Below, in pieces: positions 6,614 through 61,455 of a DNA stretch of 61,527 nucleotides. The notes beneath the pieces were generated by a model. The model did not search any database. It was not told the origin of the DNA and saw nothing but the letters and a program-made list of their open reading frames with translations. The DNA comes from a virus. The stretch spans positions 1 through 61,527 of IMG/VR virus record IMGVR_UViG_3300033069_001718; one strand, written 5' to 3'. The translations under genes and the position numbers were made by a program. Positions within the stretch are counted from its first letter, which is position 1. Each line of letters begins with the position of its first letter.

Positions 6614-6618
6614 AACAT

Positions 6619-10684: not shown

Positions 10685-10687
10685 AAA

Positions 10688-11518: not shown

Positions 11519-11521
11519 AAA

Positions 11522-12478
11522 TTAGGTGTTAAGATTACCGACCGCTATTTCAAGATTTTTATACCACCGCAGATATTCAGGAGTTCCAGGCATAGGAGCC
11601 ATGTCTGGAGTTAGTTCCGTTCGTATCTTATAGGTTTCATATTCTTTTCCTGTAATAGGAATTGGATATTTAAAGAACCGACGATCCCACACATCTGGTT
11701 GATTTTTCCAATTAGAATAGTTTAAAGTCTTTCGTTTGGTAGCCGCCGCTGGGTCTTGGTAAATTTGATTGAATAGTATCGTATCCACGCCCAATGTGGC
11801 GTCATGAACAGGTCCGTGATCTACTAGATGGCCGGAGTAATGCGTAAACACGGCGGCGACCTTTTCAAAATCGGTGACCTTGCCACCATCGGCTTGAACT
11901 CTAAAAATCATATCATGAATGGCATGATTGGAATACTCCCAACGACAATCAAATCCGCCTAGTTCCAGAAAATAATCCAATTTCATAAAAAAATGAAGTG
12001 AGATTCTCCACTCAGGTTTTATTCCGGGTTGTTGTAAGTCGGGCCAAAAACCGGCACGCCACAACTCAGAGTTATACGGTACGGGATTTACTTCAATGGG
12101 GTTTAAAGTATTCATATCCAACACATGTTTCCCTTCCACGTAAACCATGTTAATGACATCTTTTGGCCCCATAGTTTTGCGATGTAATTCAATCGCTTCG
12201 TCAATGACATCTTCCAACAGAAACCCGTCGTCGGTGATGTTGTAAAGAAACTCACCGTTACATAACTGGATGGCTAATTGTTTAGCCACGGTGGGCGCCG
12301 CGTGGGTTTTTATGACTTTGATATTAGGCATTCGTTTTACATCTTCAGGAACATCAAAGGGTGTGGGGATAACAATTTCCCAGGAATGTTTCTTACAGGC
12401 GGATTGAACCGATGCGCAGAAAGTTTCTAAAAAATGGGGCCGAATACTTGGGAGAATTATAGATACGTCTTTTTTCAT
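11522..12478 (-). CDS. glycosyltransferase family 2-like
   Basis: VSIILPSIRP N-terminus. Shares a conserved C-terminal region (GGxDCRWE, AxHD) with the 9914 and 10688 paralogs. Confidence 0.55.
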   Translation of the reverse strand: MKKDVSIILPSIRPHFLETFCASVQSACKKHSWEIVIPTPFDVPEDVKRMPNIKVIKTHAAPTVAKQLAIQLCNGEFLYNITDDGFLLEDVIDEAIELHRKTMGPKDVINMVYVEGKHVLDMNTLNPIEVNPVPYNSELWRAGFWPDLQQPGIKPEWRISLHFFMKLDYFLELGGFDCRWEYSNHAIHDMIFRVQADGGKVTDFEKVAAVFTHYSGHLVDHGPVHDATLGVDTILFNQIYQDPAAATKRKTLNYSNWKNQPDVWDRRFFKYPIPITGKEYETYKIRTELTPDMAPMPGTPEYLRWYKNLEIAVGNLNT

Positions 12479-27753: not shown

Positions 27754-28470
27754 ATGCTAAATATAGTTGGAGAATCAAGGAAGAACGAATGCGAGAATAC
27801 TACGAAAAAGTGGGCAAAAACTTGTCCAAAATGTAACTGCGAACAGATATATTCCAGCAGACGGTCTTTGTGGAATGGTATTAGTAAAAACAAACCATGT
27901 CCAAGTTGTGTTAATTCCGGAAAAAATAATCCATTTTACGGAAAGACCCACACCAAAGCTCACATAAAATCATTGTCCGAAAATCAAAAAAACTGTTCTT
28001 ATAGATACAAGAATACAACAGGGAAAAACCCTCCCAAAATTAATAAAATTTGTAAAAATGAAAAATGCAGTAAATCATTTTCTGTAACGGTGGGGCAGAA
28101 GAAGCGTTTGTATTGTTGTTATCAATGCGCATTAAATGACAAATTCGGTTTTTCTAAGATGCGAAAAACGGCGCCCGAAAAGATGTTCGAACGGATGTTA
28201 AAAAAACATAAGATAAAATATAAATATGGATTCGTGCTCGGCGGAAAAATATACGATTTCTATATTCCTAAAAAAAATCTTTTAGTGGAGGTCGATGGAA
28301 TATATTGGCATGCAAAAGGAATTTCTAAATCAAAAATGAATTTTACACAACTATCGAATCGGCGTAATGACTTAAAAAAAGATGACATAGCTAAGAAAAA
28401 CGGATACGCTTTAATAAGAATTTGGGAAGATGAATTGGAAGAAAACAAATGTATAAAAATATTTTCATAG
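27754..28470 (+). CDS. homing-endonuclease-like protein (zinc finger + NUMOD3-like + DUF559/Vsr-like nuclease domain)
   Basis: CPKCNC...CPSC zinc ribbon. NNPFYGKTHTKAH is a NUMOD3-like motif. C-terminal LLVEVDGIYWH...IRIWEDEL is DUF559/Vsr-type. Overlaps the polymerase start by 22 nt. Confidence 0.5.
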   Translation: MLNIVGESRKNECENTTKKWAKTCPKCNCEQIYSSRRSLWNGISKNKPCPSCVNSGKNNPFYGKTHTKAHIKSLSENQKNCSYRYKNTTGKNPPKINKICKNEKCSKSFSVTVGQKKRLYCCYQCALNDKFGFSKMRKTAPEKMFERMLKKHKIKYKYGFVLGGKIYDFYIPKKNLLVEVDGIYWHAKGISKSKMNFTQLSNRRNDLKKDDIAKKNGYALIRIWEDELEENKCIKIFS

Positions 28471-31858: not shown

Positions 31859-32235
31859 ATACTGCTTATGAGGAAACGGTTCGGTTGGCCAAATTAATTT
31901 TTCAAGAAATTTATGAAAAGAGATTTTCTAATCGTAAAGAATTTGATAATTTCACTAGTCAATTGGTGAAAGATACTAAACAACCCGACACTGAATACAC
32001 TTATTCTTCATTGTATCTATCAAAACATTCTCATTTTACCTTTCATATAAAGGTGGTTTGTAACAGATGCTACTCCGTAATTACCTTTTCGTTCTGTATG
32101 ATACGGGGCGATAGTCAATTTTCCAATGGAAACATTTCGTCGGTGTCAATAAACATAGGTACTCCTGCCTATTGGTATGGAAACGAATCAATGTTTTCAG
32201 AGCCTGTCAAGGAAAAAGAGGAAATGATATTATGA
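31855..32235 (+). CDS. hypothetical protein
   Basis: ORF only. Confidence 0.3.
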   Translation: MNTAYEETVRLAKLIFQEIYEKRFSNRKEFDNFTSQLVKDTKQPDTEYTYSSLYLSKHSHFTFHIKVVCNRCYSVITFSFCMIRGDSQFSNGNISSVSINIGTPAYWYGNESMFSEPVKEKEEMIL

Positions 32236-32795
32236 AATTTCAACTTAAAACATGTTCCATCTTCGATATTAAAGATGTCGATGCTTACACCAACACCATA
32301 AACTGCGTTGGCATCATGGGCGCTGGTATCGCAGCTGAATTCAAAAAAAGATACCCCACAATGTTCAAAGAGTATCAAGAAGAATGTCTTATCCACGGTA
32401 TTAAACCAGGAGATTGTTGGGTGTATTCCGACGTGTCCGGAGTTGATTTATTAAATCTTGCCGTGAAAAGAGATTGGCGTGAGTGGGCGACCAGAGAATG
32501 GCTGGAACAAAGCCTCAAATCATTCAAATTGGAGGTTCTAGAGCGTAGAATTAAAAGCGTGGCCCTACCGCTCCTTGGCGGTAAAAACGGCCGACGCGGC
32601 CCTTGGGGCTCCGTTAAAGATTTCACCCCACCGCCACAGCCGGAAGAATTAAAAACATGGTTGGTAAAAGAGTTGACGAAATTCTCTGAAACATTTGATC
32701 TGGAAATTTATTTGTGTATTCCCGATGACAAGCCGGTTGAAACTCAGTCCGACCGCATAAAAATAGCGGCCAAACAATTCTTTAACTTAAAATAA
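32232..32795 (+). CDS. macro-domain (ADP-ribose binding/processing) protein
   Basis: INCVGIMGAGIAAEFKKRYP resembles the macro-domain glycine-rich ADP-ribose loop. Start at the ATGA-coupled ATG. Confidence 0.5.
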   Translation: MKFQLKTCSIFDIKDVDAYTNTINCVGIMGAGIAAEFKKRYPTMFKEYQEECLIHGIKPGDCWVYSDVSGVDLLNLAVKRDWREWATREWLEQSLKSFKLEVLERRIKSVALPLLGGKNGRRGPWGSVKDFTPPPQPEELKTWLVKELTKFSETFDLEIYLCIPDDKPVETQSDRIKIAAKQFFNLK

Positions 32796-33728: not shown

Positions 33729-34688
33729 ATGGAAGAATTCCTAGAATTTAAAGGTCAAACTGAAAAAACTCAGATCGACCACTATATTTGGACCGAAAAA
33801 TACCGGCCAAATGATTTAAGCGATTATGTAGGTAATGAGTCATTGAAAGAGTCAGTTGAACGTTATATCTCTGAAGGTGACATCGCGCACCTTTTGTTTT
33901 TTGGCCCAGCGGGGACAGGTAAAACGACTTTGGCTAAGATGTTGGTGAAAAAGATCGACTGCGACCATTTGTATATTAATGCGTCCAGTGAGAATGGAAT
34001 CGAAACTATTCGTCAGAAGATTACAGGATTTGCTTCCTCCGCTGGCTTTCGGGATCTTAAAATTATCATATTGGATGAGGCAGATTTTTTGACCGCTAAT
34101 GCGCAAGCGGCATTACGCAATACGATGGAGACTTATTCCTCCCACACGCGCTTTATCATGACGTGTAATTATCATGAAAAAATTATTCCCGCGATTGCGT
34201 CCCGCTGCCAAAAATACGAAGTCAAACCACTGTCCAAAAAAGAAGTTGCGATTCAAGTCGCCACCATTCTCAATAAAGAAAAGGTGGCCTTCATGAAGGA
34301 AGACTTAGCCTTCATCGTTAACAAATACCACCCCGATCTGCGGCAAATAATAAATGTGGCACAACAATCGACGCATGGTGGTAAATTGAAATTGACCAAG
34401 GAGGATTTAGTGGTTAGTGACTTGATGTCAACTTTGGTGGAGAAACTCAAAACGCCTACCCAAAAGGGATTATTCAACGAACTGCGGCAACTAATCGCAG
34501 ATTCAGATACGAATAGCTTTGACGAAATTTACAAGTACCTATTTGATAAGGTGGGGGAATATGCCAATGGCAAAGAAGCCGTAGTTTGTTTGGAACTAGC
34601 CGACGGGATCTATCAATCCGCGTTGGTATTCGAAAAACAAATAACATTTCTTGCCACTTTACAAAAAATCATAAACGCGTTACGCTAA
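33729..34688 (+). CDS. AAA+ clamp loader large subunit (gp44 / RFC-like)
   Basis: Walker A FFGPAGTGKTT. Walker B IIILDEADFL. SRC motif ASRCQKY. Exactly 319 aa, like T4 gp44. Confidence 0.85.
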   Translation: MEEFLEFKGQTEKTQIDHYIWTEKYRPNDLSDYVGNESLKESVERYISEGDIAHLLFFGPAGTGKTTLAKMLVKKIDCDHLYINASSENGIETIRQKITGFASSAGFRDLKIIILDEADFLTANAQAALRNTMETYSSHTRFIMTCNYHEKIIPAIASRCQKYEVKPLSKKEVAIQVATILNKEKVAFMKEDLAFIVNKYHPDLRQIINVAQQSTHGGKLKLTKEDLVVSDLMSTLVEKLKTPTQKGLFNELRQLIADSDTNSFDEIYKYLFDKVGEYANGKEAVVCLELADGIYQSALVFEKQITFLATLQKIINALR

Positions 34689-35180: not shown

Positions 35181-36266
35181 ATGAGTTTTTTGGCTCCAGC
35201 CATAGAGATCGCCCCCTTTCTCCCCATGCGTGGGATATATTACATTGGTCAATATGGAACCAGTGGTTATGCGAACGCGGCTCGTGGGTACCTCTATCAT
35301 TATTATTCTCTGGGGACGCCAATAACATGGGATCCCCTCTACTTCGATGGATCGGAGATGGAGGATGATGACCCTATAAATGTCGTCGTTAAATCCCTTA
35401 TTAATAAAACCATTGATTATGACTTCATTATCATCCACAGCACTCCTGATTTGTGGCCGGGCCTGTTAAAGCAGAAGAAGATGGATAACTGCGGGCGGAT
35501 TGTTGTCGGTTATTGTACGTGGGAGACCAGTCAACTCCCTGACGCCTGGGTAACCAGTATAAATAATTCAGTTCACGAGCTATGGGTGCCCTCAGAGTAT
35601 AATCGCCAAGCCTTCATCGCATCGGGAGTAACCAAGCTAATTCGGGTTGTCCCCCACATTTACCTACCCCCGCAAACGATGGATCGGAAACGAATAAACA
35701 TCAATGATGAAACGGTGTATACTTTCTATACAATTGGGGAAATGAATGCCCGTAAATCCATTGCGGAAACAATTGAGACTTTTTGCCGAACTTTTACGAA
35801 AGACGATCCCACGCGGTTATTGGTTAAGACTCACTATAAAGATTATGATACCAAAAATCGTCTGACATGTGAGAATAAGGTGATAGACATTCTGGAAAAT
35901 TTTCCTGAGCACGCTCCGGTTTTGGTTTTTGCCGACAAATGTTCATCCAAACAAATCTCCGCGATACATACCGTAGGAGATTGTTATGTCGCACTGTCCA
36001 AATCGGAGGGATTTGGTTTGCCAATTTTTGACGCGTTTCACCGTGGAAAAAAAATCATCACAACCGGCTATGGTGGGCAATTAGATTTCCTCCACGGAGA
36101 CTATCCGGGATTAGTTCGTTATACCCTGGGCCCGGCCGCCGGGATGCGTAATTATGCTGGGTTCGAAAACGAAACCCAGGATCATACATGGGCCATCCCT
36201 GATTTTAATCATGCGAGCGAACTCATGCGAAAGAATTATGAAGAATTTAAAGGCGCCTCTCTTTAA
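35181..36266 (+). CDS. glycosyltransferase family 4-like (GT-B)
   Basis: ALSKSEGFGLPIFDAFHRGKKIITT E-x7-E region. Start context aatatataaagtATGAGT. Confidence 0.6.
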   Translation: MSFLAPAIEIAPFLPMRGIYYIGQYGTSGYANAARGYLYHYYSLGTPITWDPLYFDGSEMEDDDPINVVVKSLINKTIDYDFIIIHSTPDLWPGLLKQKKMDNCGRIVVGYCTWETSQLPDAWVTSINNSVHELWVPSEYNRQAFIASGVTKLIRVVPHIYLPPQTMDRKRININDETVYTFYTIGEMNARKSIAETIETFCRTFTKDDPTRLLVKTHYKDYDTKNRLTCENKVIDILENFPEHAPVLVFADKCSSKQISAIHTVGDCYVALSKSEGFGLPIFDAFHRGKKIITTGYGGQLDFLHGDYPGLVRYTLGPAAGMRNYAGFENETQDHTWAIPDFNHASELMRKNYEEFKGASL

Positions 36267-36277
36267 AACTTAAAATT

Positions 36278-37177
36278 ATGATAGAACCCGAAATTAACAT
36301 AGTTTATGTTATTCAAGCATACAACCGGCCCCATTTATTAGCCCCAAGCTTACTAAGCCTTAGAGATCAAATCATTTCTCGGGATCGAAGAATCATCCTC
36401 TTAAACGATGGCCCCAAAGATGCGGGAGACATCGAAAAAATAAATGCGAATAAAATGATATTCGAATCCTTTTTTTCAGGATATCCCAAGGCTGAATATC
36501 GGGTCGAACCAATTAATAATGGAGCCGAACAGATGTTTGTTAAGACATTTTTTCAAATGTTTGATGTTGAGGGAGTTGATTGCTTTGCTCTATTAGAAGA
36601 TGATCTGTATTACGAACACAGTTATGTTCACAATGTAGAGCGGCTTTTATCACAGACATATGAAGACCCCGATGTTGTGAGCGTAAGTGGATTTACACGA
36701 CAGACAATATTCAAAACTAAATTTGAACTTGAAATGAATCGCCGATATGTTACTGCCCAACACAATTTAATCGGAGCGGTGTACAAAAAAATCGGCTGGC
36801 CAATTTTAAAACCAGCCTTTTTAGATTTTCTGGAACTTAAAAAGTCAGGTATTAGGCCGGAGACTATCTTTTTAACGTTAAACTCTAAATATGGTCTTAA
36901 GATGCCACATACAGCTTACGATAAGATTGTTGACCATTTATTTGCTAAACATCGGAAGTTGAGGGTCTCCACTTTTAATCGATATCTTTTTCATATGGGT
37001 TTGTTTGGAACATCGTGCGCTAAAAACAATGAAGATACTCATCATAACCGTGAGGCGCTTGCCAATTTCATTCGATTTGATTGGAATAAGCTGACAACGG
37101 ATAGCTCCACGGTGGATCATTTCATATTGAATAAAATGGATGATAGTTTTGTAGAGCAGTTTAGGAAAGAATCATGA
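36278..37177 (+). CDS. putative GT-A fold glycosyltransferase
   Basis: NIVYVIQAYNRPHLL N-terminus. ALLEDDLYY acidic motif. Confidence 0.4.
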   Translation: MIEPEINIVYVIQAYNRPHLLAPSLLSLRDQIISRDRRIILLNDGPKDAGDIEKINANKMIFESFFSGYPKAEYRVEPINNGAEQMFVKTFFQMFDVEGVDCFALLEDDLYYEHSYVHNVERLLSQTYEDPDVVSVSGFTRQTIFKTKFELEMNRRYVTAQHNLIGAVYKKIGWPILKPAFLDFLELKKSGIRPETIFLTLNSKYGLKMPHTAYDKIVDHLFAKHRKLRVSTFNRYLFHMGLFGTSCAKNNEDTHHNREALANFIRFDWNKLTTDSSTVDHFILNKMDDSFVEQFRKES

Positions 37178-38223
37178 AAAATAATCACCATGAAGAATTC
37201 ACTCAAAAGTATAGTAGTTGGGGAGATAAGCTTCTTCAACATACTGATGTGTTATCATCAATCCAGAATAAAAGAAAATTTATTCCAATAAATATTCAAC
37301 TGGCTCCATGCGAAATTTGTGACAGCGACTGCCCATTTTGCTCAGTTCAAAACCGACCTCTTAAAAGTAAACTTTCATTTGAAAAAATACAGAAAGTGTT
37401 AGGGGACTTTAGGACACTTGGGGCTAAAGCACTTGAGATTACCGGCGGAGGAAATCCTATGCTCTACCGTGACGGGAACCGTAACATTAACGATATCATT
37501 GAATGTGCTTATAGTTTAGGATATCAAATCGGAATAATAACGAACAGTCACAATCTTTCCAAGATAAATCCTGAGAACCATTCTAAAATAACGTGGTTAC
37601 GAATAAGTCTTATTCAATTGGATGAGGGTATTGAACCGGAAGAATATTTTTTTAATGGATTTCCGACAAACAAACTGGGATTTAGTTACATTATCTATGA
37701 TAAGACGACCCAAGAATCTATTTTGAAAATTTCTAAACTGGTTGCTTTACATCCCGCTGTCAAATTCGTTCGCCTGGCGGGGGATTGTTTGATTAAAGGA
37801 AATAACGTTGAAGTACGGGAGAAATTCAAGGGGGTAATTGATGAGATAGATAAACAATCAAAATTCTTTTTTAAAGAAATTGGTCATGAGGATTCGCCAT
37901 TTGATCACGGTTGTTATGTGGGGATGATACGACCATATGTAGCTCCGAATCCACAAGGAGGAGATTATAGAGTATATCCATGTACTAGTTATGTTCTAAA
38001 TAAACGGACATATGACCTGGATTATTCGCTTTGTAGCATCGATGACATCATACCAATGTGGGAAGCTATGAACCTCCGATTTAAAAACACAGGAAATCCA
38101 TATGAGATAAAGGGAAATAATGGGACGGATTGGTGTAAAACGTGTAAATATTGTTATTACAAAAATAACAATAAATTACTCCACTCCGTAGCCGCTGAGA
38201 TGCCAGATAAAAATTTCGCATGA
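37174..38223 (+). CDS. radical SAM enzyme
   Basis: CDSDCPFC CxxxCxxC motif. GGGNPML. Confidence 0.6.
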   Translation: MKNNHHEEFTQKYSSWGDKLLQHTDVLSSIQNKRKFIPINIQLAPCEICDSDCPFCSVQNRPLKSKLSFEKIQKVLGDFRTLGAKALEITGGGNPMLYRDGNRNINDIIECAYSLGYQIGIITNSHNLSKINPENHSKITWLRISLIQLDEGIEPEEYFFNGFPTNKLGFSYIIYDKTTQESILKISKLVALHPAVKFVRLAGDCLIKGNNVEVREKFKGVIDEIDKQSKFFFKEIGHEDSPFDHGCYVGMIRPYVAPNPQGGDYRVYPCTSYVLNKRTYDLDYSLCSIDDIIPMWEAMNLRFKNTGNPYEIKGNNGTDWCKTCKYCYYKNNNKLLHSVAAEMPDKNFA

Positions 38224-38792
38224 ATTTTGAAGAGTCATATTTTAAAAGTATAAATTATACCAATTATCTTGAGCGAGGTATTCGTTATAAGAAAATGGCG
38301 AAAGAATTGGTCCATTATTTAAAAGACCACACTCACATTCACCAAAACACATTGACTTTGGATTATGGTTGCGCGGTTGGATTTTTTACCCTGGGAGTGT
38401 CTGAGTTGGGAGTGTGTTGTGATGGTTATGACATTTCAACTTGGGCGGCCAACATCGCGAAGGATAATGGCGTTACTATTATTCCATTCGAATCACGGCA
38501 TTATGATATTATGTTCGCATTCGATGTGTTTGAACATATGGAAGATGGTGAAATAAACAAATCTTTGTATATGTTCTCTCCCAATTTATTGTTAATTAGA
38601 ATACCCTGTTCAATCAACGGGAAGGATTTTCATTTAGATGTTTCCCGCCGCGACCCAACCCACATCAATTGTAAAACAAAAGATGATTGGTTGGCTTTTT
38701 TCAAAAAAGCAGGCTTCACCCACGCCGAACCTATTGATTTATATACGATTTATGATGCGCCTGGAGTTATGTGTTATTTGTTCCAACGTTGA
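38220..38792 (+). CDS. class I SAM-dependent methyltransferase
   Basis: LDYGCAVGFFT motif-I-like. FDVFEH. Confidence 0.5.
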   Translation: MNFEESYFKSINYTNYLERGIRYKKMAKELVHYLKDHTHIHQNTLTLDYGCAVGFFTLGVSELGVCCDGYDISTWAANIAKDNGVTIIPFESRHYDIMFAFDVFEHMEDGEINKSLYMFSPNLLLIRIPCSINGKDFHLDVSRRDPTHINCKTKDDWLAFFKKAGFTHAEPIDLYTIYDAPGVMCYLFQR

Positions 38793-38821
38793 TCATTTTA
38801 CATCTGTTTCTAACACGGATT

Positions 38822-38838
38822 CATATTTATAGGATATG
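38822..38838 (+). promoter_or_regulatory. conserved start-proximal motif cATATTTATA-N4-ATGAG
   Basis: tcatatttataggatATGAGT. Confidence 0.45.
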
Positions 38839-39453
38839 AGTCAAAAGAAACCGATTACCAAGGAAAATTCATTTGAGGGCGGCGCCGCTGGCAGCGCCGG
38901 TACAGTCAATTATGCGACTGGCTGGGGAACCTATGCTTCTCCCGCTAACGCACAATATCCTGACCGGTTCGCCGGTAATCGTGGCAACAACACCGCTGAT
39001 CAACAACAGGGCGGTCCGGCCGGCGGCAAGAGTGTAACATCCGACATGCCCCAACAAGGTAAGCTTGCTGGCGCAGTCAATAAAATTTTCAAGAAAAAAG
39101 ACACGCCTTCGCCCGACGAAATCGCGGCCGGACTACAATATGAATTGGGGCAAATGATTCAAAAAGACAAGGGACGGGCCAAAGAAACCGTCTTAAGCAA
39201 CATTAAACGGGACCCTCACTATTACAGCAATTTACATATGTTAAACATTGATGATAAACAGATGAAGGTGGATGAGAGTCGTTTGGCTAAAAAAGCCGAA
39301 CTCAAGAATATTTTCCAGGAAATGGCCACGGAGCGCCCAAAGAAATACGAAACCAAACCTGAAATCGCTGAAGTGATGAAGGATCTGTGGCGGAAAAAGG
39401 AAGAGCGTAGTTTGTGGAAGCGGGGCAAGACTTCGCAAGCCCCAAACCATTAA
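38836..39453 (+). CDS. Gly/Ala/Gln-rich protein, possibly virion-associated
   Basis: Low-complexity N-terminal half. Preceded by a TATTTATA motif 4 nt from the ATG. Confidence 0.4.
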   Translation: MSQKKPITKENSFEGGAAGSAGTVNYATGWGTYASPANAQYPDRFAGNRGNNTADQQQGGPAGGKSVTSDMPQQGKLAGAVNKIFKKKDTPSPDEIAAGLQYELGQMIQKDKGRAKETVLSNIKRDPHYYSNLHMLNIDDKQMKVDESRLAKKAELKNIFQEMATERPKKYETKPEIAEVMKDLWRKKEERSLWKRGKTSQAPNH

Positions 39454-39473
39454 CCCCCGTTAATAAATGAGTT

Positions 39474-40529
39474 ATGAACCTACCAACGACGTTTTGTATT
39501 TCTCTTAAAGAGACACCCATAAGAACAAATGGCTTTCTTGATTTGGCTAAAAAAGCCGATCTACCGGTTTCTGTTTTTTATGGGGTATTAGGCGACTCCT
39601 TGGGTTTGATTCCTAAACTCACCAACGAATTGGAATGTCCCAAGAAAAATGTCTTTATCAACGAACGCGCGATTGGTTGTAATCTATCACATTTTCTTTT
39701 GTGGAATATGCTAAAATATCGTTCGGAGGAAGAGTTTTTGATTTTTGAAGATGACGCGATAATTCCTGATGATTTCATTTCAAGTTTTAAGAAACTATAC
39801 GATCAACTTCCTTCCAACTGGGAATTCGTATACATCGGTTGGATACCATATGGTAAGGATAGTGCGCCTTTGATTGTGAGTGACGGGATTTCTATCCGGT
39901 CTCCGAGCGCCACCCACGCCTATATGATTAAGAAATCGGCGATTGAAATTTTATGCGACAACGTCGTTCCGTTTCAATCTCCACTGGATTTGGCCATTAT
40001 CAATCGATGTCTTCCAAAACTAAAACACTATGTTTTTGACCCGCCCTTAGTCCGGCAACGGAGTTATGCGAATGTTAAAGATCCGGTTTGGATGTCTTTG
40101 ATCTATGATTGGTCCTCCGATTTATATGGTTTCAAACGAAAAATATTACGGGAAATGAATCTGGGGGATGGTTGGTATAATTTGGAAAAATCAACTGATG
40201 CTTACTGGATATGGAGTCGTGATACATTTACTATTAAATTACCTGAGTGCGCGGAGAACATTCATCTGGTTTTTAGTTCACCCATCCGAAATACTCTATC
40301 CCTATTCTGTGATGGTAAACAGACGGATTTTGAATTTCCGGTTGGTGATAATGAAATCCAACTACACACCGGCGGCGCTGTGTTATTATCAGGAAAAGTA
40401 TATGAACAATTCATTCCGATGAGATATGATCCAGCTTGTAAAGATGAAAGAGACCTTGGGATTTGTTTGAAAGCCATTAAAATTGATGTGGGTTCGATTC
40501 CTGTAACCGTTGGGGTGGAAGAACTATGA
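39474..40529 (+). CDS. glycosyltransferase family 25-like (LPS/LOS beta-glycosyltransferase family)
   Basis: GCNLSHFLLWNMLKYRSEEEFLIFEDDAIIPDDF matches the GT25 core. Confidence 0.6.
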   Translation: MNLPTTFCISLKETPIRTNGFLDLAKKADLPVSVFYGVLGDSLGLIPKLTNELECPKKNVFINERAIGCNLSHFLLWNMLKYRSEEEFLIFEDDAIIPDDFISSFKKLYDQLPSNWEFVYIGWIPYGKDSAPLIVSDGISIRSPSATHAYMIKKSAIEILCDNVVPFQSPLDLAIINRCLPKLKHYVFDPPLVRQRSYANVKDPVWMSLIYDWSSDLYGFKRKILREMNLGDGWYNLEKSTDAYWIWSRDTFTIKLPECAENIHLVFSSPIRNTLSLFCDGKQTDFEFPVGDNEIQLHTGGAVLLSGKVYEQFIPMRYDPACKDERDLGICLKAIKIDVGSIPVTVGVEEL

Positions 40530-41296
40530 TCCCTCAGAAAATTCATTATATTTACGGATTGGATCCTGAATTTTCTAAAAAACCATTCACATTGATTCAT
40601 TATTTATCCGTAATATCAGCGCATTTTTCTCAACAATTCGACATCACAATTCATATTAAATATGAACCGAAGAATAATGTTTGGTGGGAGAAAACAAAAC
40701 CGTGGGTTACTATCAAAGAATTACCTGATGTTCCCAATGAATTTTTCGGAATCCCCATTGTATTTCCTGAACATAAATGTGACTATCTCCGTTTAAAAAT
40801 TCTTGATGAAGTTGGGGGGATTTATATGGATATGGATACCATTTGTGTCGCTCCCTTATTTCCATTATTGGCTCACGATTTTGTTATGGGAGAAGAACGT
40901 TTGGATAAAAATTTAAACGGGTTATGTAATGCGATAGTAATGGCTAAGCCCCAAAACCAGTTTGGAAGAATTTGGTTAGATTCATTTCGTGATTTTAATC
41001 CCCTTGATTGGAATCTGATGGCAGTCCGCCGGCCTCTAGAAATAGCATTACAAAACCAAACTAAAATTCACATCGAACCTTCATCCTCATTTTTCAAATA
41101 TGATTGGCACCACATTCTTGATATATTCAACGGAGAGGTGGTGGACTATTCCGACATTTACACTATCCATTTGTGGGAGAGTAAATTATACCACCCAATA
41201 TTAAAACATATTACCATTGAGGATATTGTTGCCAGAGATTGTTATTTCAATAAACTTGCTAGAAAATACCTTAACCTTGCGGGGTGGAAACTATGA
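40526..41296 (+). CDS. DXD-motif glycosyltransferase (GT32 / Och1-like)
   Basis: GGIYMDMDTICV DXD motif. Confidence 0.5.
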   Translation: MIPQKIHYIYGLDPEFSKKPFTLIHYLSVISAHFSQQFDITIHIKYEPKNNVWWEKTKPWVTIKELPDVPNEFFGIPIVFPEHKCDYLRLKILDEVGGIYMDMDTICVAPLFPLLAHDFVMGEERLDKNLNGLCNAIVMAKPQNQFGRIWLDSFRDFNPLDWNLMAVRRPLEIALQNQTKIHIEPSSSFFKYDWHHILDIFNGEVVDYSDIYTIHLWESKLYHPILKHITIEDIVARDCYFNKLARKYLNLAGWKL

Positions 41297-42282
41297 GCCT
41301 AATTTTGCCGCCGATGCTAGATCAACATAGACCGCTTGGTAAATTTTCTCCAAATAGAAGCTTTGAAGTTGAGTGTTTAAAAATGTTATGTGAAATCCTA
41401 GATGATTATTGTAAATTCTATGACACTAAATATTGGATTGATTGGGGCACATTGTTGGGCGCTTACCGGGAAAAAAAAATCATCGATGGGGACCTGGACA
41501 TTGATGTCAGTTGTTGGATAACCGAAGCAGATCACTGGTGGGAACAAAAACAAGTGAATTTGATCCGAGCCGTTCAAAAAGAATTTTTCATTCGACATTT
41601 TTCATCTGACTATCATCTAGCAATATACCCCCGTGATTTTCAGAAATTTCAAATGAGTCACATCGACATCTATTTCCACCGTCTTGAAGGCAACCAATTG
41701 GTCGACGGACATAAAAACAAAATATTTCGGAGATTTTATGTAGATGAGTTGGAAACCACATCATTATATGATCAGACGTTTCCTTGCCCCCGACATACTA
41801 AAGAATTCTTAACATTAAGGTACGGGGCTGATTGGCAAACTCCCCAACCCCATTCTCCACCGGGAAATATGGGGAAAGACAAAGAAATATACACCGCTTA
41901 TACCGCTATGGTCGGAGATATGTTCCACATCGGCCACCTCAATCTGCTTCAACGGTGTAAGAACTTATTTGATAAAGTTATCGTCGGAGTTCATAATGAT
42001 GAAGCGGTGGTGTCTTATAAGAGCCGCCCGGTCATTCCCTATCCTCAACGCTTAGAAATCATTCGGTCTTGTAAATATGTGGATGAAGTTCTTGAAAACG
42101 CGCCTGCCATTACCACCGACCAATTACTGGATTCTATTTTAGCGGATTTTGTGGTCGCGGGGAGGGAAGACTCCGAAAAGATTAATCGACTATACCCAGT
42201 CCGACCAGAACGGTTACACCTCATTCGACGCACAGAGGATGTCAGCTCTTCCGCGATCAAGGAATTTGTCAAGTCTGTTTGA
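41293..42282 (+). CDS. LicD-family phosphotransferase fused to TagD-like cytidylyltransferase
   Basis: N-terminal YWIDWGTLLGAYRE...DGDLDIDV (LicD signature). C-terminal MVGDMFHIGHLNLL (HxGH cytidylyltransferase). Start at the ATGA-coupled ATG. The track start is GTG. Confidence 0.6.
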   Translation: MSLILPPMLDQHRPLGKFSPNRSFEVECLKMLCEILDDYCKFYDTKYWIDWGTLLGAYREKKIIDGDLDIDVSCWITEADHWWEQKQVNLIRAVQKEFFIRHFSSDYHLAIYPRDFQKFQMSHIDIYFHRLEGNQLVDGHKNKIFRRFYVDELETTSLYDQTFPCPRHTKEFLTLRYGADWQTPQPHSPPGNMGKDKEIYTAYTAMVGDMFHIGHLNLLQRCKNLFDKVIVGVHNDEAVVSYKSRPVIPYPQRLEIIRSCKYVDEVLENAPAITTDQLLDSILADFVVAGREDSEKINRLYPVRPERLHLIRRTEDVSSSAIKEFVKSV

Positions 42283-43732
42283 TTTTTTTCGTTTCGGGTC
42301 GCAAACCTACGCCACGGTTTAAATTAACAGCGTGGTGGCGCTTAGGATCAACCTGTTCTAAAATAGAATTTAATTGAATGTTCTTTTTATCCACCCACGC
42401 TTCAAAAGAATCTGGGCCCAGAAAACCATCGACACGAATAAGTGAGTTTCGGAAAAGGCTATTGTTTATTCCAGAATCTTTTTCCCACCAGAGATTTTCC
42501 TTTATCACTTGATGATAGATGGGGGTTCCAGGCAACGGAGTGAAGATCGATACGGAAAAACTATCCGCGCCACATCCACTCGCAACCTCAATGGTTTTTT
42601 CCATTTCAGCTCGGGTTTCTCCTGGTAGGCCGACCATCCAAAAAGTGTGAACGAACAAACCGGCCGCCTTGGCGTTTTGAATGGCTAATTTAAATTGGTC
42701 AACTTTGATATTTTTGCGGATGATCTTGTCCAATACACGTTGAACTCCACTTTCACACGCCAAGGTTATTTGATAACATCCACTCTGTTTCATTCGTCGG
42801 AACATTTCCGGTTGTTCGTGAGTGTGGTAATTGAGTTTTATCCCATTTGGGGTACACCACGGTAACTGAAATTCTTTCAGATAATCACATAGTTGGTAAA
42901 GTTTTTTGAGGTTGGCGGTCAGAGTATCATCCTGGAATTGAATTTCTTGAATATTGTAATCCGCAACCGCATGCTTTATTTCCTGATATAACCTCTGAGG
43001 GTCTTTCCAGCGTACGGAGGCGCCCCAGGTTAGGGGTGTAGTACAAAACTGACATTTTTCGGGACAACCCCTGGAGGCCATTACAGGCAATACTCTTCCG
43101 GAATACGATTGTGCGGAATGAAATAAACCGACCCTGAAATATTTTTCCATCGGAAATAAATCCCATGCGGGGGCAAGACATTCGGCCATCTCAATGAATT
43201 TTCCAGGAGGATTGGTTATTAACTCATTGCCCTTGAAATAACTAAGGCCCGGTGTGGTTTTAGAAAACCCATCAATGAATTGAGGTAATGAAAATTCCGC
43301 TTCTCCGCTGAAATAATAGTCGATGTTCGTATCAATGCGAACGGGGGCAATTTCCAATTTCCAATCGCGGATAGTATTTGTAATGTAATTTCCACCAACT
43401 ATAACAAGTACTTTCGGATTGATCTCTTTACAGAGGGCGGCAATTTCCGCCGCACTATCCATTAGATTGCTAAAAAGAACCGATATTCCAACAAGATCGG
43501 GATTAATCTTCCGGATTTTTTCTGAGATATTATTCTTCGATTCTCCAATGGATATCATCGTCCCGCCAATTGGTTTCTGAATTTCCCAACCTTCAATCGC
43601 AGTGTCATACACAACGACATCGTGTTTTAAACGGAGGTATGCCGCAAGGTAGGCTAATCCCAATGGAGGTTGGATACGATTAATTCCTCCACTGACCCCC
43701 TTGATGTTTGGGGATATTAACAAGATTTTCAT
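42269..43732 (-). CDS. B12-binding radical SAM enzyme
   Basis: MASRGCPEKCQFC CxxxCxxC. N-terminal LVIVGGNYIT B12-domain-like. Convergent with the LicD gene, with a 14-nt 3-prime overlap. Confidence 0.7.
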   Translation of the reverse strand: MKILLISPNIKGVSGGINRIQPPLGLAYLAAYLRLKHDVVVYDTAIEGWEIQKPIGGTMISIGESKNNISEKIRKINPDLVGISVLFSNLMDSAAEIAALCKEINPKVLVIVGGNYITNTIRDWKLEIAPVRIDTNIDYYFSGEAEFSLPQFIDGFSKTTPGLSYFKGNELITNPPGKFIEMAECLAPAWDLFPMEKYFRVGLFHSAQSYSGRVLPVMASRGCPEKCQFCTTPLTWGASVRWKDPQRLYQEIKHAVADYNIQEIQFQDDTLTANLKKLYQLCDYLKEFQLPWCTPNGIKLNYHTHEQPEMFRRMKQSGCYQITLACESGVQRVLDKIIRKNIKVDQFKLAIQNAKAAGLFVHTFWMVGLPGETRAEMEKTIEVASGCGADSFSVSIFTPLPGTPIYHQVIKENLWWEKDSGINNSLFRNSLIRVDGFLGPDSFEAWVDKKNIQLNSILEQVDPKRHHAVNLNRGVGLRPETKKIKQT

Positions 43733-43809: not shown

Positions 43810-43828
43810 AATATTTATACGTTGTATG
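43810..43828 (+). promoter_or_regulatory. conserved start-proximal motif ATATTTATA-N6-ATG
   Basis: caatatttatacgttgtATGAAT. Confidence 0.4.
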
Positions 43829-45217
43829 AATTACAGAGACTTCTATAAGCAAGAACAGGCGCTAGCGGGTTCTCCCACCCTGGCGGAAAATATTGATTTA
43901 TCCAAAATTCCGCCTGAGCTCCTTAAAGGGGCAGAGGTCGAACTGGAACACACCCCCAGCAAAGGAAAGTCTTTGCGTGACGCTGCTCCAGCGGACATAA
44001 AAATCGCTTTAAAAACCTCCCTCGATCATTATAAAGAGGATAAACATTACTATGAAAAGCTGGCCGGGGCCGGCATCGATGAATGTAATGCGTCGTATGG
44101 CGGTTGGACACCTGTCCCGCCGCAATTGGGATTGGATGTACCTAGCCGCATACGCCCCGTTTCCATTGTCAATTTAGTTAATCCTGTCGCTGCCTTCGGC
44201 GGCAAAGCTATGGGCATGTCCAGCCGGCCTGATACCGCGGTTGGTTCCGTTGCTGACGATAAAGAAAAGATTACTGCGGCAGGTGAGGTTGACTCTTCCA
44301 TTGCGCAAAAATCCGTGGGCGGCACCGTCATCCCCAACAAAGGTCAAAAGCAAGAAGGGCCAAACCATAATGGTTGTATCGCAGGCACTCCGGACAATTC
44401 TGCCAAGAAGAGTCCTGCTCCCGGTGGACCTAATTCCAAGGGCTCGATTAATGGTACACCCAAGAACCCAACCTTTGGGCTTAAGGGGAGTGATCTAATT
44501 AAGGGTGGTTTTGGCGTTTCCACCGATCAAGCCAAGATTGGTCAATTTGAAGATTGTGGGAATGAAGAGGAAGAAGTAGCCATTGAAACTCCGGATGAAG
44601 ATGATTTAGACGCGGCTAATCGGCGTGAAGTCGATTCAATGGAACCAAATATGGATTCGGCTGATATGGCCAGCGCGGAAGATCAACGTCAATCCACAGA
44701 GGATTTGCCGGGCGCTGAGGAAGAAGGTGAGGACGTGACGATTAAATTGAATGAGGCCATTAAAAATGTGGTTCACGAAGTCATCCACGAAGTTATTCAG
44801 GAAGCCCGGGCTAAAAAGCGTTCCCAAGCAGTAGCTAAGCCAATCATAAAGAGTTTTAAGAAAGCAGGCGCGCTCCAACGGGAAGCCGCATTTATTTCCC
44901 GTAAAATCAATGAGGGTCGGGAACTGACCGCCGACGAACGTGCGGTAATCACTGAAATTCTTATTGCGAAGGCAGTGCGCCTCAAAGAAGAATTTGATGC
45001 TGAGGGTTGGCAGTCTGCGGCGGAAGGCCAACAAGCCATCCTTGATAGTTGGGTCGAAGACATTGTTAAATATCGTTCCCGCAATGACACGGTAGAGGAT
45101 TTAGTGGCCAGTATCACCGTCGTTGCGGAGGATAAGCTTGGTATTCGGCACATCAACGATGAGGAAATTTCCCGCCAAGTCGAAGAATTTATGGCAAAAT
45201 ATCCCGCCAAACATTAA
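43826..45217 (+). CDS. acidic low-complexity protein, possibly structural or internal
   Basis: Gly/Ala/Pro/Asp/Glu-rich. Preceded by a TATTTATA motif. Confidence 0.4.
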   Translation: MNYRDFYKQEQALAGSPTLAENIDLSKIPPELLKGAEVELEHTPSKGKSLRDAAPADIKIALKTSLDHYKEDKHYYEKLAGAGIDECNASYGGWTPVPPQLGLDVPSRIRPVSIVNLVNPVAAFGGKAMGMSSRPDTAVGSVADDKEKITAAGEVDSSIAQKSVGGTVIPNKGQKQEGPNHNGCIAGTPDNSAKKSPAPGGPNSKGSINGTPKNPTFGLKGSDLIKGGFGVSTDQAKIGQFEDCGNEEEEVAIETPDEDDLDAANRREVDSMEPNMDSADMASAEDQRQSTEDLPGAEEEGEDVTIKLNEAIKNVVHEVIHEVIQEARAKKRSQAVAKPIIKSFKKAGALQREAAFISRKINEGRELTADERAVITEILIAKAVRLKEEFDAEGWQSAAEGQQAILDSWVEDIVKYRSRNDTVEDLVASITVVAEDKLGIRHINDEEISRQVEEFMAKYPAKH

Positions 45218-54722: not shown

Positions 54723-55367
54723 TTATTGAAGAGTCTTAGCCAGTTTTCTCATAAACGGGATCCAATCCCGGTGCATCGGCTTCCGAATCGTTTCCCACGC
54801 TTCCACCTCCCGTGGCGGCCGGGGTGACTGAATCAAACGTAGGCCCGCTTCACTATTCAACTTATTACCCTTCGTTGAGTTAATGTCCTTGGCAGACCAA
54901 ACCACATTGTCCCAGGTGTCGGTACCACCACGGGACAGAGGAACAACGTGGTCCACACTACCTTCAGACGGCTCGATGATGCGACCGGTGTATTGGCAAC
55001 GGTTGCCATCCCGGAATTGGACAGCCTGGTTTGAAGGCGTCTTCTTCGGCGTTTTCCTTGGCATCCGGTCAAACTTACTGGTGATAACCACCGTCGGTAC
55101 ACGAATCTCCATCTTTGAGGTGCGAATTGTCGGGTCCCATTTACGTATCGGTAAAGTTATCCAGGTTTCCCACGGTACGGGATTGGCATAGATTGGGCGC
55201 TTGTTTTCCACCGGCCTGCCGTTTTCATCCAATGCCCAATCCAAATCCATAGCAAAAACTACCCCGTTGACTAGATCAACGATGGCTTTACCGACGCTGG
55301 AAGTCCCTACTTCCTGCCAGTTTTTGTTTAGTTTTAGGACAATGTTCAAATCAGCGATATTGTTCAT
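54723..55367 (-). CDS. HNH endonuclease
   Basis: CQYTG...VDHVVPLSRGGTDTWDNVVWSAKDINSTKGN is a canonical HNH motif. Confidence 0.7.
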   Translation of the reverse strand: MNNIADLNIVLKLNKNWQEVGTSSVGKAIVDLVNGVVFAMDLDWALDENGRPVENKRPIYANPVPWETWITLPIRKWDPTIRTSKMEIRVPTVVITSKFDRMPRKTPKKTPSNQAVQFRDGNRCQYTGRIIEPSEGSVDHVVPLSRGGTDTWDNVVWSAKDINSTKGNKLNSEAGLRLIQSPRPPREVEAWETIRKPMHRDWIPFMRKLAKTLQ

Positions 55368-55549: not shown

Positions 55550-56176
55550 TTAGATAATCTCATCCACAAAACCCCATTCCAAACACACTTCAGGAGAAAT
55601 ATACAGATCGTGTTTTAATAACACATCCAATTCCTTTTTAGGAATTTTTGTTTTTTCAAGATATATCTTCTTGATTGACGCCATCATCATATCAAGGTTT
55701 TCCATCTGATCTTTAAGTTCAGTATACTTACCCCAATACTCTGCGCTTAGTTGGTGAATTAGAAAAAAGGAATTTTTAGTGATAAATCGTTTTTTTCCTG
55801 ACACCGAAATCATCGTGGCGCCACTCGCGACTTCACCTTCACAATAGGTATGAATGGGAACGGGGCAATTGCGAATTTTATCCGCGGCGCAAAATGATGA
55901 GCCGACATCGCCGCCGGGAGAATTGATATGAAGTTTAATGGGAGGAGCTTCATTCAAATCCAATGTAATCTTGAGAATTAACATCTGCCGGGCGGCTTCG
56001 TCGATTTGTTTGTTCAGTTCCAGTACCGTCTCACTAGTTATTTCACTATAAAAATAGATCCGGTTTGCTTGTGAGCTTGTTTGGGGGGATGCGTTAATCG
56101 AAATTGTCGTCGGTTCCTCACCGTCGATATTAGATGCAGCATTATGTCTTCGATGGGACCGTGTTGACCATTTCAT
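55550..56176 (-). CDS. ClpP-family serine protease (possible prohead protease)
   Basis: LHINSPGGDVGSSFCAADKI ClpP-like core. Start placed at the ATG preceded by GGAAAGGAG. The track start is TTG. Confidence 0.6.
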   Translation of the reverse strand: MKWSTRSHRRHNAASNIDGEEPTTISINASPQTSSQANRIYFYSEITSETVLELNKQIDEAARQMLILKITLDLNEAPPIKLHINSPGGDVGSSFCAADKIRNCPVPIHTYCEGEVASGATMISVSGKKRFITKNSFFLIHQLSAEYWGKYTELKDQMENLDMMMASIKKIYLEKTKIPKKELDVLLKHDLYISPEVCLEWGFVDEII

Positions 56177-56233
56177 TAGAAACTCCTTTCCCTTGTTCAA
56201 GGAATAAATATGGTTCCGTTCAACTAAAAGAGA

Positions 56234-57306: not shown

Positions 57307-58224
57307 TTAGAAATTGACTAACAATCGTTTAGCTTCTTCCGCAGAGGTCTTACCTTTCGATACACTCTGAAGTAGTTCATCTAATGCGGCATCCGATAAT
57401 TTGTACATGGAGGACTGCCAGCCGGCGTAAATCTTACCATCGTAATACAATACTTGTTTGCTATGCTGCTTGGGGTTATGGGGCGCCGGGCGGCAATTGG
57501 TTTGTAAACCGCACATTTGACGAAAATTGACAGGCATCCCATCAATAATTGCTTCCTTATGACAACCGTTAATAAATGGATCATCGTTCAGACCATACTT
57601 CCCATTGAGGACTTCGGTTAGATTTACAAAATTATTCTCATCAACTTTAAGCTCAGCAAAACGAACGGAGTCAGCACCAAGGGTTTTGGCAAACGTGATA
57701 TATTCCCGGATCGTATTTTCGGAATCGATGTAGCCCCGAATGGTATTACAATTGAAGCGGATACTACCACCAAGTTCGTGAATCGTTTTAATACCTTGCT
57801 CTAAAACCTGAGTATTGAGATACAAATGCGTAATATCGTGATTCAAACGCATATCAAAGTGGTGAATGGAAATATTAACCCCGGCGATACCTTGGAAATT
57901 TTCCTTACAATATCCGGGATTGATGCGGCAACCATTGGTAGTAACCCACACTTTAAGTTGATTCGCTACCAGTTTTTCAATTAAAGGTTTGATATCGGGA
58001 TAAAGGGTCGGTTCACCACCCAGAAGAATGATGTTTTTCTTACCTGTTGAAATTGCGGCCTGAGCAAGTTGTTCCCAGGTGGCTATGTGATCAGGATGGA
58101 AGCCCAACTTTTCAATACACCACGAGCACCGAGCGTTACATTTATTTGTAAGATTAACCTCCAACCAATCCTGGAAAGCTCCGCCGCAGAAATTTTCCGG
58201 ATGGGGCAGGGTAGATTCGGACAT
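57307..58224 (-). CDS. radical SAM enzyme of unknown specificity
   Basis: CNARCSWC CxxxCxxC. LLGGEPTL glycine-rich SAM motif. Confidence 0.6.
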   Translation of the reverse strand: MSESTLPHPENFCGGAFQDWLEVNLTNKCNARCSWCIEKLGFHPDHIATWEQLAQAAISTGKKNIILLGGEPTLYPDIKPLIEKLVANQLKVWVTTNGCRINPGYCKENFQGIAGVNISIHHFDMRLNHDITHLYLNTQVLEQGIKTIHELGGSIRFNCNTIRGYIDSENTIREYITFAKTLGADSVRFAELKVDENNFVNLTEVLNGKYGLNDDPFINGCHKEAIIDGMPVNFRQMCGLQTNCRPAPHNPKQHSKQVLYYDGKIYAGWQSSMYKLSDAALDELLQSVSKGKTSAEEAKRLLVNF

Positions 58225-61296: not shown

Positions 61297-61382
61297 CCAA
61301 TAATTTATAAGGTTATTGGGGCTAGTGGTTTTGATGTTCAAAACGCAATGTCTGAACGATAGGGCTTCCCCTAGAAGATGGT

Positions 61383-61455
61383 AGCCCAAGTGAGATTCGA
61401 ACTCACGCTACACAGATTTTAAGTCTGCTGACTCTTCCGCTGGTCTACTGGGCCA
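61383..61455 (-). tRNA. tRNA, anticodon UAA (Leu-reading) in a class I (short variable arm) body. CCA not cleanly encoded
   Basis: Reverse complement folds as GGCCCAG/TTGGGCT acceptor, U8, GCAGA/TCTGT anticodon stem, loop CTTAAAA, T-arm GTGAG-TTCGAAT-CTCAC, discriminator A. Coordinates are approximate within 1-2 nt. Confidence 0.65.

Follow-up and report, generated by a model that had tools for sequence, protein, structure and literature searches.

ORF 41293-42282 (+) of an uncultured phage encodes a 329-aa fusion of a compact LicD/FKRP-type phosphotransferase domain with an HxGH cytidylyltransferase domain. This open reading frame (ORF) lies in a glycan-assembly island of the IMG/VR record IMGVR_UViG_3300033069_001718, of which positions 1 to 61,527 were analysed (61,527 nucleotides, called the window). 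Judged from its genes, the source is an uncultured T4-like phage; the window covers about half of a 125-kb genome, and negative results at the genome level are limited to it. With both active sites intact, the sequence is most simply read as that of a bifunctional enzyme. We propose that it belongs to an activate-methylate-transfer module of the island, a proposal for which we see the chances as evenly balanced.

Earlier, a reading of the letters alone had described the ORF as a LicD-cytidylyltransferase fusion inside a phage glycan locus, and Pfam, motifs and structural model bear this out. Both domains are detected by profile searches, contrary to the outcome that the earlier note had said would refute its reading. 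PF01467 (CTP_transf_like) matches aa 209-324 with 67.3 bits (cut-off 21). PF04991 (LicD) matches with 25.9 bits (cut-off 22.6), only over aa 40-73 and 34 of the 227 model positions; most fusion homologues carry it too. Despite this short match, the LicD domain is complete and compact. The motif hG[ST]x(9-15)DxD is present together with a downstream acidic residue, G52-T53 being its hG[ST] residues in the window protein. Across 58 homologues, G52, R59, D69 and D71 are invariant, D67 is kept in 57 and D125 is D or E in 54. A sequence match to the FKRP catalytic domain in the PDB extends over residues 44-179 (E 0.0056), and NCBIfam gives a match to Mf1 cholinephosphotransferase (43.5 bits) that covers the N-terminal motif only. 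In the cytidylyltransferase half, H212, G214 and H215 of HxGH are invariant in the 58 homologues, as are R253 and T314, while K243 is kept in 57 and R313 in 55. The RTxGISTT-type C-terminal motif of cytidylyltransferases reads RTEDVSSS in the fusion. The AlphaFold2 model has a predicted local distance difference test score (pLDDT) of 92 and a predicted template modelling score (pTM) of 0.88; the N-terminal half has the FKRP catalytic-domain fold and the C-terminal half the Rossmann-like cytidylyltransferase fold.

Production of a CMP- or CDP-activated head group and its transfer to a glycan, as suggested in the earlier note, would be the natural reading of such a fusion. In the mechanism that we propose, the C-terminal HxGH domain would join CTP and a small phosphate or phosphonate head group into a cytidylyl-activated intermediate. 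A B12-binding radical S-adenosylmethionine (SAM) enzyme, encoded by the convergent gene 42269-43732, would methylate the head group while it is still cytidylylated, by analogy with Fom3, which acts on cytidylyl-2-hydroxyethylphosphonate. The N-terminal LicD/FKRP-type domain would then move the phospho(no)-group from the cytidylyl intermediate to a sugar hydroxyl. The acceptor sugar would be part of the glycan built by the neighbouring GT4-like, GT25 and GT32-type glycosyltransferases. We infer this chemistry and the order of its steps, with head group and acceptor, from domain identities, catalytic residues, fold, synteny, the linkage to the radical-SAM gene and bacterial cluster contexts.

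The cytidylyltransferase half had been called TagD-like, which turns out to be the least accurate label: the ethanolamine-phosphate and choline-phosphate enzymes (ECT and CCT) and Fom1 are all closer than TagD. On the TagD equivalog model (TIGR01518) the fusion reaches 48.5 bits against a cut-off of 165.4, and it is thus not a TagD equivalog. Among solved structures, ethanolamine-phosphate cytidylyltransferase is the nearest, followed by CCT, the Fom1 cytidylyltransferase and TagD. Core identity is 40% to ECT and CCT, 32-45% to cytidylyltransferases fused to Ppm, and 28% to TagD. The match of the fusion to Fom1 is low (41 bits). The nearest relatives of this half are stand-alone viral enzymes, 52-56% identical. 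These comparisons rest on identities and motif classes; a neighbour-joining tree of the cores (about 90 columns) was uninformative.

Four positions before HxGH, a small residue can replace the Phe of GxFD, a signature that is empirical and was derived in the present analysis. The window fusion reads MVGD before HxGH (aa 206-215) and Fom1 reads MSAD. Gx[FY]D stands at this place in TagD, CCT and ECT domain 2; of 202 cytidylyltransferases without Ppm nearby, 175 have it too, and GxFD is kept in 56 of 59 LicD-adjacent bacterial enzymes. The small residue is present in 23 of 24 Ppm-linked (fused or adjacent) cytidylyltransferases, as compared to 27 of the 202 without Ppm nearby (Fisher p ~1e-16). 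Among the fusions themselves, it occurs in five of the six that have the B12 radical-SAM gene and in two of the 22 that do not (p ~0.001). The signature, written [MF]x[GA]D and also given as [MF]x[GAT]D, may help to sort PF01467 cytidylyltransferases by substrate class. One related locus, L006, has two paralogous LicD-cytidylyltransferase fusions (7511-8569 and 9989-11035), with two sulfotransferase genes nearby. The copy adjoining the B12 radical-SAM gene reads LVGD and the other GVFD, which suggests that one island may handle two different head groups.

The B12 radical-SAM gene is the most informative neighbour of the fusion, a link that the earlier note had not made. Its best model is NF038361 (Sden_1168 family) with 211 bits, under the cut-off of 575, followed by HpnJ with 138 bits; another B12 radical-SAM gene of the window scores 56 bits on NF038361. 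The cysteines of CxxxCxxC (C223, C227, C230) are invariant in 23 homologues. According to a review, SD1168, Fom3 and HpnJ form one sequence cluster, the substrate of SD1168 being unknown. The gene is convergent with the fusion, with a 14-nt overlap of the 3′ ends. Orthologues 58-64% identical stand beside the fusion in L004/5, L006/7, L008/9, L017 and L258/9, and in the first four they are tail-to-tail with it or at most two genes away. Altogether, the fusion adjoins a B12 radical-SAM gene in seven distinct contigs. For P0137, the arrangement was predicted and then found on its 84-kb contig (L258). A tblastn search with the gene returned no cultured phage and only a plasmid match, 31% identical. 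Bacterial homologues are about 50% identical over the full length.

One of these bacterial homologues (L254; ENA ERZ21829562, a 688-kb contig) is 49% identical over 482 aa to 42269-43732. It lies in a series of genes (3897-10521) encoding, in order, a cytidylyltransferase-Ppm fusion, a Ppd-like thiamine pyrophosphate (TPP) enzyme, an iron-dependent alcohol dehydrogenase (ADH), a compact LicD, a TylF methyltransferase, the B12 radical SAM enzyme and GT4 glycosyltransferases. The cytidylyltransferase domain scores 206 bits on Fom1, and the compact LicD 66 bits on the hidden Markov model (HMM) of the N-terminal domain of the fusion. By its gene content, L254 is an early fosfomycin pathway (Fom1/Fom2/FomC/Fom3) in which LicD and glycosyltransferases replace FomD and Fom4. 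The pathway appears to serve a glycan instead, for which a 2-hydroxypropylphosphonate decoration is predicted. The context in Ca. Nitrohelix (L251) is suggestive, with a class-V aminotransferase, a CDP-alcohol phosphatidyltransferase and a Ppd-like TPP enzyme.

Because of the convergent B12 radical-SAM gene, a phosphonate-type head group is a serious alternative to a polyol phosphate. A two-carbon phosphonate-like group of the 2-hydroxyethylphosphonate or 2-aminoethylphosphonate (AEP) type, leading for instance to a 2-hydroxypropylphosphonyl decoration, is the candidate that we tentatively prefer, somewhat short of an even chance. Glycerol phosphate and phosphoethanolamine are the chief alternatives and, taken together, make up a possibility of a similarly tentative kind. 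A complete phage phosphonate-tailoring module, in which a CMP-phosphonate would be made from host- or phage-derived phosphonate, C-methylated by the SD1168/Fom3-type enzyme and installed by LicD on a virion or host glycan, is in our view rather unlikely.

Several observations weigh against a phosphonate. Neither ppm (searched by the EDKX5NS motif and a Ppm HMM) nor ppd nor phosphonoacetaldehyde reductase was found in the 61.5-kb window or within ±10 kb of the related phage loci. With neither ppm nor ppd seen in the window, both head group and acceptor are putative. There is no Ppm near the stand-alone viral cytidylyltransferases that are closest to the fusion, and none of 19 Ppm-bearing IMG/VR contigs is a relative of the window phage. 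The signature is not exclusive either, as it also occurs in about 27 MVGD-type cytidylyltransferases for which no Ppm lies within 8 kb; many of these come from Actinomycetota, and the surroundings of one actinobacterial enzyme of this type (L095) gave no clue. Moreover, its co-variation with the radical-SAM gene comes from fusions that are not phylogenetically independent of each other. The B12 radical-SAM gene is missing from about half of the relatives that have the fusion (L001, L012, L014, L018), and therefore the fusion would be able to work without it. Only one of the four bacterial contexts (L254) is an unambiguous phosphonate cluster; L252 is uninformative, and in L253, a glycan cluster, ppm is absent within 9 kb. 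Finally, the LicD half does not discriminate, since Ppm-linked and unlinked LicDs score equally on the N-domain HMM once the Ppm-query loci are excluded. An apparent closeness of this half to Ppm-adjacent LicDs (medians of 62 and 47 bits) was discarded, the gap having disappeared without those loci.

Published work describes fusions of PF01467 domains to Ppm, as well as LicD-like genes in the neighbourhood of phosphonate tailoring. A 2022 survey had reported no Ppm in RefSeq viral genomes and, among 364 huge-phage genomes and metagenome-assembled genomes (MAGs) of nucleocytoplasmic large DNA viruses (NCLDV), one Ppm-encoding NCLDV MAG contig only. We observed that 19 IMG/VR contigs (L260-L278) encode Ppm, mostly beside a compact LicD (e.g. 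L273 8731-15720, L276, L270), and that some of them have phage hallmarks (tail-fibre-like, virion structural and transglycosylase genes). A giant-virus contig with an intein-containing Rpb2 (L036, identical to L260; IMG/VR 3300032286_000782) carries in a row, at 7408-12800, an aminotransferase(AEPT)-Ppd fusion, a cytidylyltransferase-Ppm fusion and a LicD gene. From their sequences, these genes are a complete viral AEP-type tailoring set.

A teichoic-acid-like reading, as put forward in the earlier note, would account for the same genes with abundant host metabolites: CDP-glycerol or CDP-ethanolamine would be made from glycerol-3-phosphate or phosphoethanolamine, LicD would add the phospho-alcohol, and the radical SAM enzyme would be an unrelated sugar C-methylase or dehydratase. 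Such substrates are available in any host, which fits the lack of supply genes in the window. The closest solved structure is an ethanolamine-phosphate cytidylyltransferase, pairs of HxGH cytidylyltransferase and LicD in capsule loci are annotated as glycerol-3-phosphate cytidylyltransferase plus LicD-domain protein, and LicD lies near the cytidylyltransferase in 26 of 80 bacterial loci, most of them with no Ppm detected. As for the radical SAM enzyme, three other B12 radical-SAM genes lie in the sugar cluster of the window, the partner best matches, among solved structures, the sugar diol-dehydratase AprD4, and one bacterial homologue sits in a pure glycan cluster. Against this reading, the fusion falls far short of the TagD equivalog cut-off, and no characterised cytidylyltransferase is more distant from it than TagD. 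The GxFD typical of TagD, CCT and LicD-adjacent enzymes is replaced by MVGD, and the aromatic residue of TagD (W74), CCT (W151) and ECT (Tyr) is absent: this position is L, V, A or I in the fusion family, as compared to T or L in Ppm-fused enzymes. In addition, across divergent islands the radical-SAM gene goes specifically with the fusion, and not with sugar genes. We consider the teichoic-acid-like reading possible but doubtful. The same aromatic position bears on phosphocholine, which the earlier note had also offered as a decoration. If the fusion acted as LicC plus LicD, it would make CDP-choline and add phosphocholine to the glycan, as the LicD family name, the Mf1 cholinephosphotransferase match and the presence of CCT among the closest structures might suggest. 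However, W151 of CCT is the cation-pi tryptophan, and because it is replaced by L, V, A or I, phosphocholine is an unlikely head group. Neither a choline kinase nor a choline transporter was found in the window, and bacterial pathways use LicC-type (PF12804) and not HxGH enzymes. Taken as a whole, the LicC-plus-LicD reading is extremely improbable.

The nature of the acceptor was considered separately. The glycan could be built on a hydroxymethylated base of the phage DNA, the fusion adding a phospho-group to it. Within the replication module, the clamp loader is directly followed by the island, whose enzymes are all soluble, and published reconstitutions of phage glycosyltransferase clusters that hypermodify 5-hydroxymethylcytosine include a CTP-transferase, often near clamp or polymerase genes. 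However, no dCMP/dUMP hydroxymethylase, TET/5mYOX enzyme or DNA methyltransferase was seen among the scanned ORFs of the window, i.e. in half of the genome; GT25, GT32-type enzymes and LicD are not known to modify DNA, and more than 30 sugar-modifying genes far exceed the known DNA glycan pathways. DNA modification is, in our opinion, highly unlikely. About 35 glycan-related ORFs of the window have no transmembrane segment, and neither Wzx, Wzy, an ABC exporter nor a priming phosphoglycosyltransferase was detected in it. Because export genes and transmembrane segments are missing from these ORFs, a soluble or cytoplasm-facing acceptor, for example a virion protein glycan or a host core glycan, is probable, and a pathway of export on undecaprenyl phosphate (Und-P) is less likely. 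Virion proteins and host core glycans are thus possible acceptors, with DNA less likely.

We then looked at the distribution of the fusion. About 67 near-full-length homologues were collected, 33-54% identical and 200-344 aa long, all metagenomic and with no informative name. A search of 1.84 billion cluster representatives gave 298 proteins at ≤1e-30, and about 40 of the best 150 span both halves. The reverse order (cytidylyltransferase, then LicD) or embedding in proteins of 865-1392 aa was also observed (P0369, P0390, P0260, P0302). No cultured phage record covers the fusion, tblastn matching the cytidylyltransferase half only. In BFVD, the two domains are never spanned by a single viral protein, and the fusion is not covered by any viral UniProt structure. 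Among 80 bacterial cytidylyltransferase loci from GTDB species representatives, two encode fusions; a separate LicD is nearby in 26 and missing in 52. Split pairs are common in viral contigs as well, and in many viral and bacterial loci a stand-alone cytidylyltransferase gene adjoins a stand-alone LicD gene, giving Rosetta-stone support to the fusion. In T4-like contigs related to the window (clamp and clamp loader 45-54% identical), the fusion always lies within a variable island that extends from the clamp loader to a DUF5661 gene. Recurrent members of this island are a GT4-like gene, GT25, a 205-aa DUF5661-like protein and the B12 radical-SAM gene. A neighbour family that seemed common to distant fusions (component 2) was rejected as an artefact: single linkage had lumped FkbM-type methyltransferases together with heptosyltransferase-like proteins, and nothing in the window matches this family.

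Pairing of LicD with a cytidylyltransferase is already known. In Neisseria capsule loci, adjacent TagD-type and LicD-domain genes have been catalogued, and TagD/TarD and N. meningitidis cshA-cshB likewise place an HxGH cytidylyltransferase beside a LicD-domain gene in a glycan locus. There, however, the genes are separate, whereas the phage protein is a fusion that lacks GxFD and fails the TagD equivalog model. Benler et al. (2021) described licD and ispD inserted in the replication module of 'Flandersviridae' gut phages. This resembles our case in that a phage LicD is paired with a cytidylyltransferase beside replication genes; it differs in that LicD and an IspD-type enzyme are encoded by two genes, in Bacteroides phages, without a radical-SAM partner or a large glycan island. 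LicD1/LicD2 with LicC (Streptococcus pneumoniae, Haemophilus influenzae) also use a LicD-family phosphotransferase to bring a CDP-activated group onto a glycan, and the hG[ST]...DxD motif of LicD1/LicD2 is conserved in the fusion too. In contrast to that phosphocholine setting, where the activator is a separate PF12804 protein, the phage has a PF01467 HxGH domain without the choline-binding aromatic, fused to a compact LicD of about 190 aa. In the FKRP/FKTN and ISPD system (CDP-ribitol, alpha-dystroglycan) the cytidylyltransferase is IspD-type and separately encoded, unlike the fused phage domain; FKRP has an extra stem domain and is 18% identical to the fusion. Human Pcyt2 (PDB 3ELB/4XSV) has two tandem cytidylyltransferase domains and no LicD, with a Tyr where the fusion family has L, V or A.

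Fom1/Fom3 of the Streptomyces fosfomycin pathway are similar to the phage pair in two respects. Fom1 has a PF01467 domain with a small residue (MSAD, compared to MVGD), and it is paired with Fom3 as the fusion is with a B12 radical SAM enzyme of the same sequence cluster. The bacterial cluster L254 ties a Fom1-like cytidylyltransferase and a B12 radical SAM enzyme to a compact LicD. In Fom1, however, the fusion partner of the cytidylyltransferase is Ppm, and the CMP conjugate later undergoes hydrolysis, whereas in the phage it is fused to a transferase, and the ppm, ppd and ADH genes of the fosfomycin pathway are not seen in the window. The component families (LicD, PF01467 cytidylyltransferases, B12 radical SAM) are all known, and large glycan gene sets in T4-like cyanophages have already been described. 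Three things are new: a phage protein in which LicD is fused to an HxGH enzyme, the conservation of its pairing with an SD1168/Fom3-type enzyme within a phage lineage, and the hypothesis of a three-step head-group module.

The 329-aa fusion with its radical-SAM partner offers a compact entry point to the products of the large glycan islands of T4-like phages. Should the head group prove to be a methylated phosphonate, phages too would carry out phosphonate tailoring, with a first phage phosphonoglycan pathway; the SD1168-type B12 radical-SAM family would gain a physiological role, and viruses would be a previously unrecognised route of carbon-phosphorus compounds into aquatic organic matter. 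If it is glycerol phosphate or phosphoethanolamine, the chemistry would be teichoic-acid-like, carried out on a phage glycan by a new domain fusion.

Between 35181 and 42282 the genes run in one direction, with 4-nt overlaps or short gaps, and every ORF named in the earlier note is found where it had been placed (Table 1). Its calls of GT25, DXD (GT32-like), radical SAM and methyltransferase genes all pass Pfam thresholds. Those of GT4 and GT-A are both weak and fall just under the cut-offs, though orthologues of the GT4-like gene do carry PF00534. This gene is 36-51% identical to its matches in T4-like relatives, and its BLASTP single-linkage family is present in 11 of the 22 other fusion-bearing loci. 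The GT25 family, for which PDB sequence matches are weak, is found in 10 other such loci, and the family of the 205-aa protein in nine (29-42% identity between window and locus); the latter protein has no Pfam or NCBIfam match. The GT-A-like gene has no orthologue in the related loci by BLASTP, and the radical SAM enzyme without B12 domain is specific to the window among the loci compared; it resembles viperin or MoaA only in the core motif and has no informative PDB match. A GT32-type gene is directly upstream of the fusion in L004 and L006 also, and in the window its stop codon overlaps the start of the fusion as ATGA (41293-41296). Clamp-loader orthologues (46-54% identity) precede the island in L001, L008, L012, L014, L017 and L018, and a DUF5661 gene follows it in L001, L006, L008 and L258. 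The two DUF5661-like genes, 38836-39453 and 43826-45217, combine DUF5661-like motifs with long low-complexity stretches rich in Gly, Ser, Thr, Asn and Pro, and in some relatives a lysozyme-domain protein comes after such genes. Their products are candidate glycan acceptors or virion proteins.

Table 1. Genes and domains of the island, its boundaries, and the radical SAM genes of the window.
Feature	Coordinates	Strand	Evidence
Clamp loader, conserved left boundary of island	33729-34688	+	phrog_168, 250 bits
GT-B (GT4-like) glycosyltransferase, first island gene	35181-36266	+	PF00534 24.3 bits, below cut-off of 26.4
Probable GT-A glycosyltransferase, weak call	36278-37177	+	PF00535 22.5 bits, cut-off 23.3
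Radical SAM enzyme without B12 domain	37174-38223	+	PF04055 30.2 bits, cut-off 29.5
Class I SAM methyltransferase	38220-38792	+	PF13489 (Methyltransf_23) 35.2 bits
Conserved 205-aa protein, low-complexity N-terminus, DUF5661-like motif	38836-39453	+	
GT25 glycosyltransferase, C-terminal half uncharacterised	39474-40529	+	PF01755 49.6 bits, cut-off 24, aa 5-123
GT32-type DXD glycosyltransferase (Gly_transf_sug)	40526-41296	+	PF04488 39.4 bits
Compact LicD/FKRP-type phosphotransferase domain	41350-41877	+	aa ~20-195 of ORF 41293-42282
HxGH cytidylyltransferase domain	41884-42282	+	aa ~198-329 of ORF 41293-42282
B12-binding radical SAM, SD1168/HpnJ/Fom3 cluster	42269-43732	-	PF02310 49.3 bits and PF04055 69.3 bits
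DUF5661 protein, conserved right boundary of island	43826-45217	+	PF18905 22.2 bits, below cut-off
B12-binding radical SAM gene	2146-3723	-	
B12-binding radical SAM gene	7969-9948	-	
B12-binding radical SAM gene	15511-17493	-	
Other radical SAM gene	57307-58224	-	

Besides a family-B DNA polymerase (phrog_262, 597 bits), the replication genes of the window encode a helicase, an exonuclease and the clamp loader. Exonuclease, polymerase, clamp and clamp loader stand between the island and the minus-strand cluster 67-23866, so that the separation of the two glycan clusters by the replication module, described in the earlier note, is borne out. The closest cultured relative is Microcystis phage Mel-JY01, whose DNA polymerase is 42% identical. 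Mel-JY01 also has a glycosyltransferase cluster downstream of the clamp loader, and no LicD or cytidylyltransferase was found in that cluster. A megablast search of the locus against 50,697 phage records gave no match, and a scan for promoters and terminators did no better than chance.

Gene 67-492 (-), the other CYTIDYLYLTRANSFERASE, had been put forward as a partner of the fusion. This is not supported, as its best score is for RfaE domain II (heptose-1-phosphate adenylyltransferase, 60 bits, as compared to 37 for TagD). The GHMP kinase 3727-4686 (-), 3 kb away, best matches the heptose-7-phosphate kinase HddA (137 bits). Because this RfaE-type gene lies near an HddA-like kinase, the first cluster probably makes NDP-heptose, and gene 67-492 probably belongs there rather than to the chemistry of the fusion. 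In the same cluster, a UDP-glucose/GDP-mannose dehydrogenase homologue at 6619-7410 (-) has 263 aa matching model positions 57-297 of 413; without the N-terminal start and the entire C-terminal domain, it may be truncated or split.

With four B12-binding and two other genes within 61.5 kb of phage DNA, the density of radical SAM genes is unusually high. The one at 57307-58224 is MoaA/viperin-like and adjoins a metallophosphoesterase gene. Just upstream of the DNA polymerase, at 27754-28470 (+), lies a homing-endonuclease-like gene (NUMOD3/Vsr-like). The window also encodes an HNH endonuclease (54723-55367, -), a macro-domain protein (32172-32795, +) and a ClpP protease (55550-56200, -), and a tRNA-Leu(TAA) gene is present at 61379-61454 (-).

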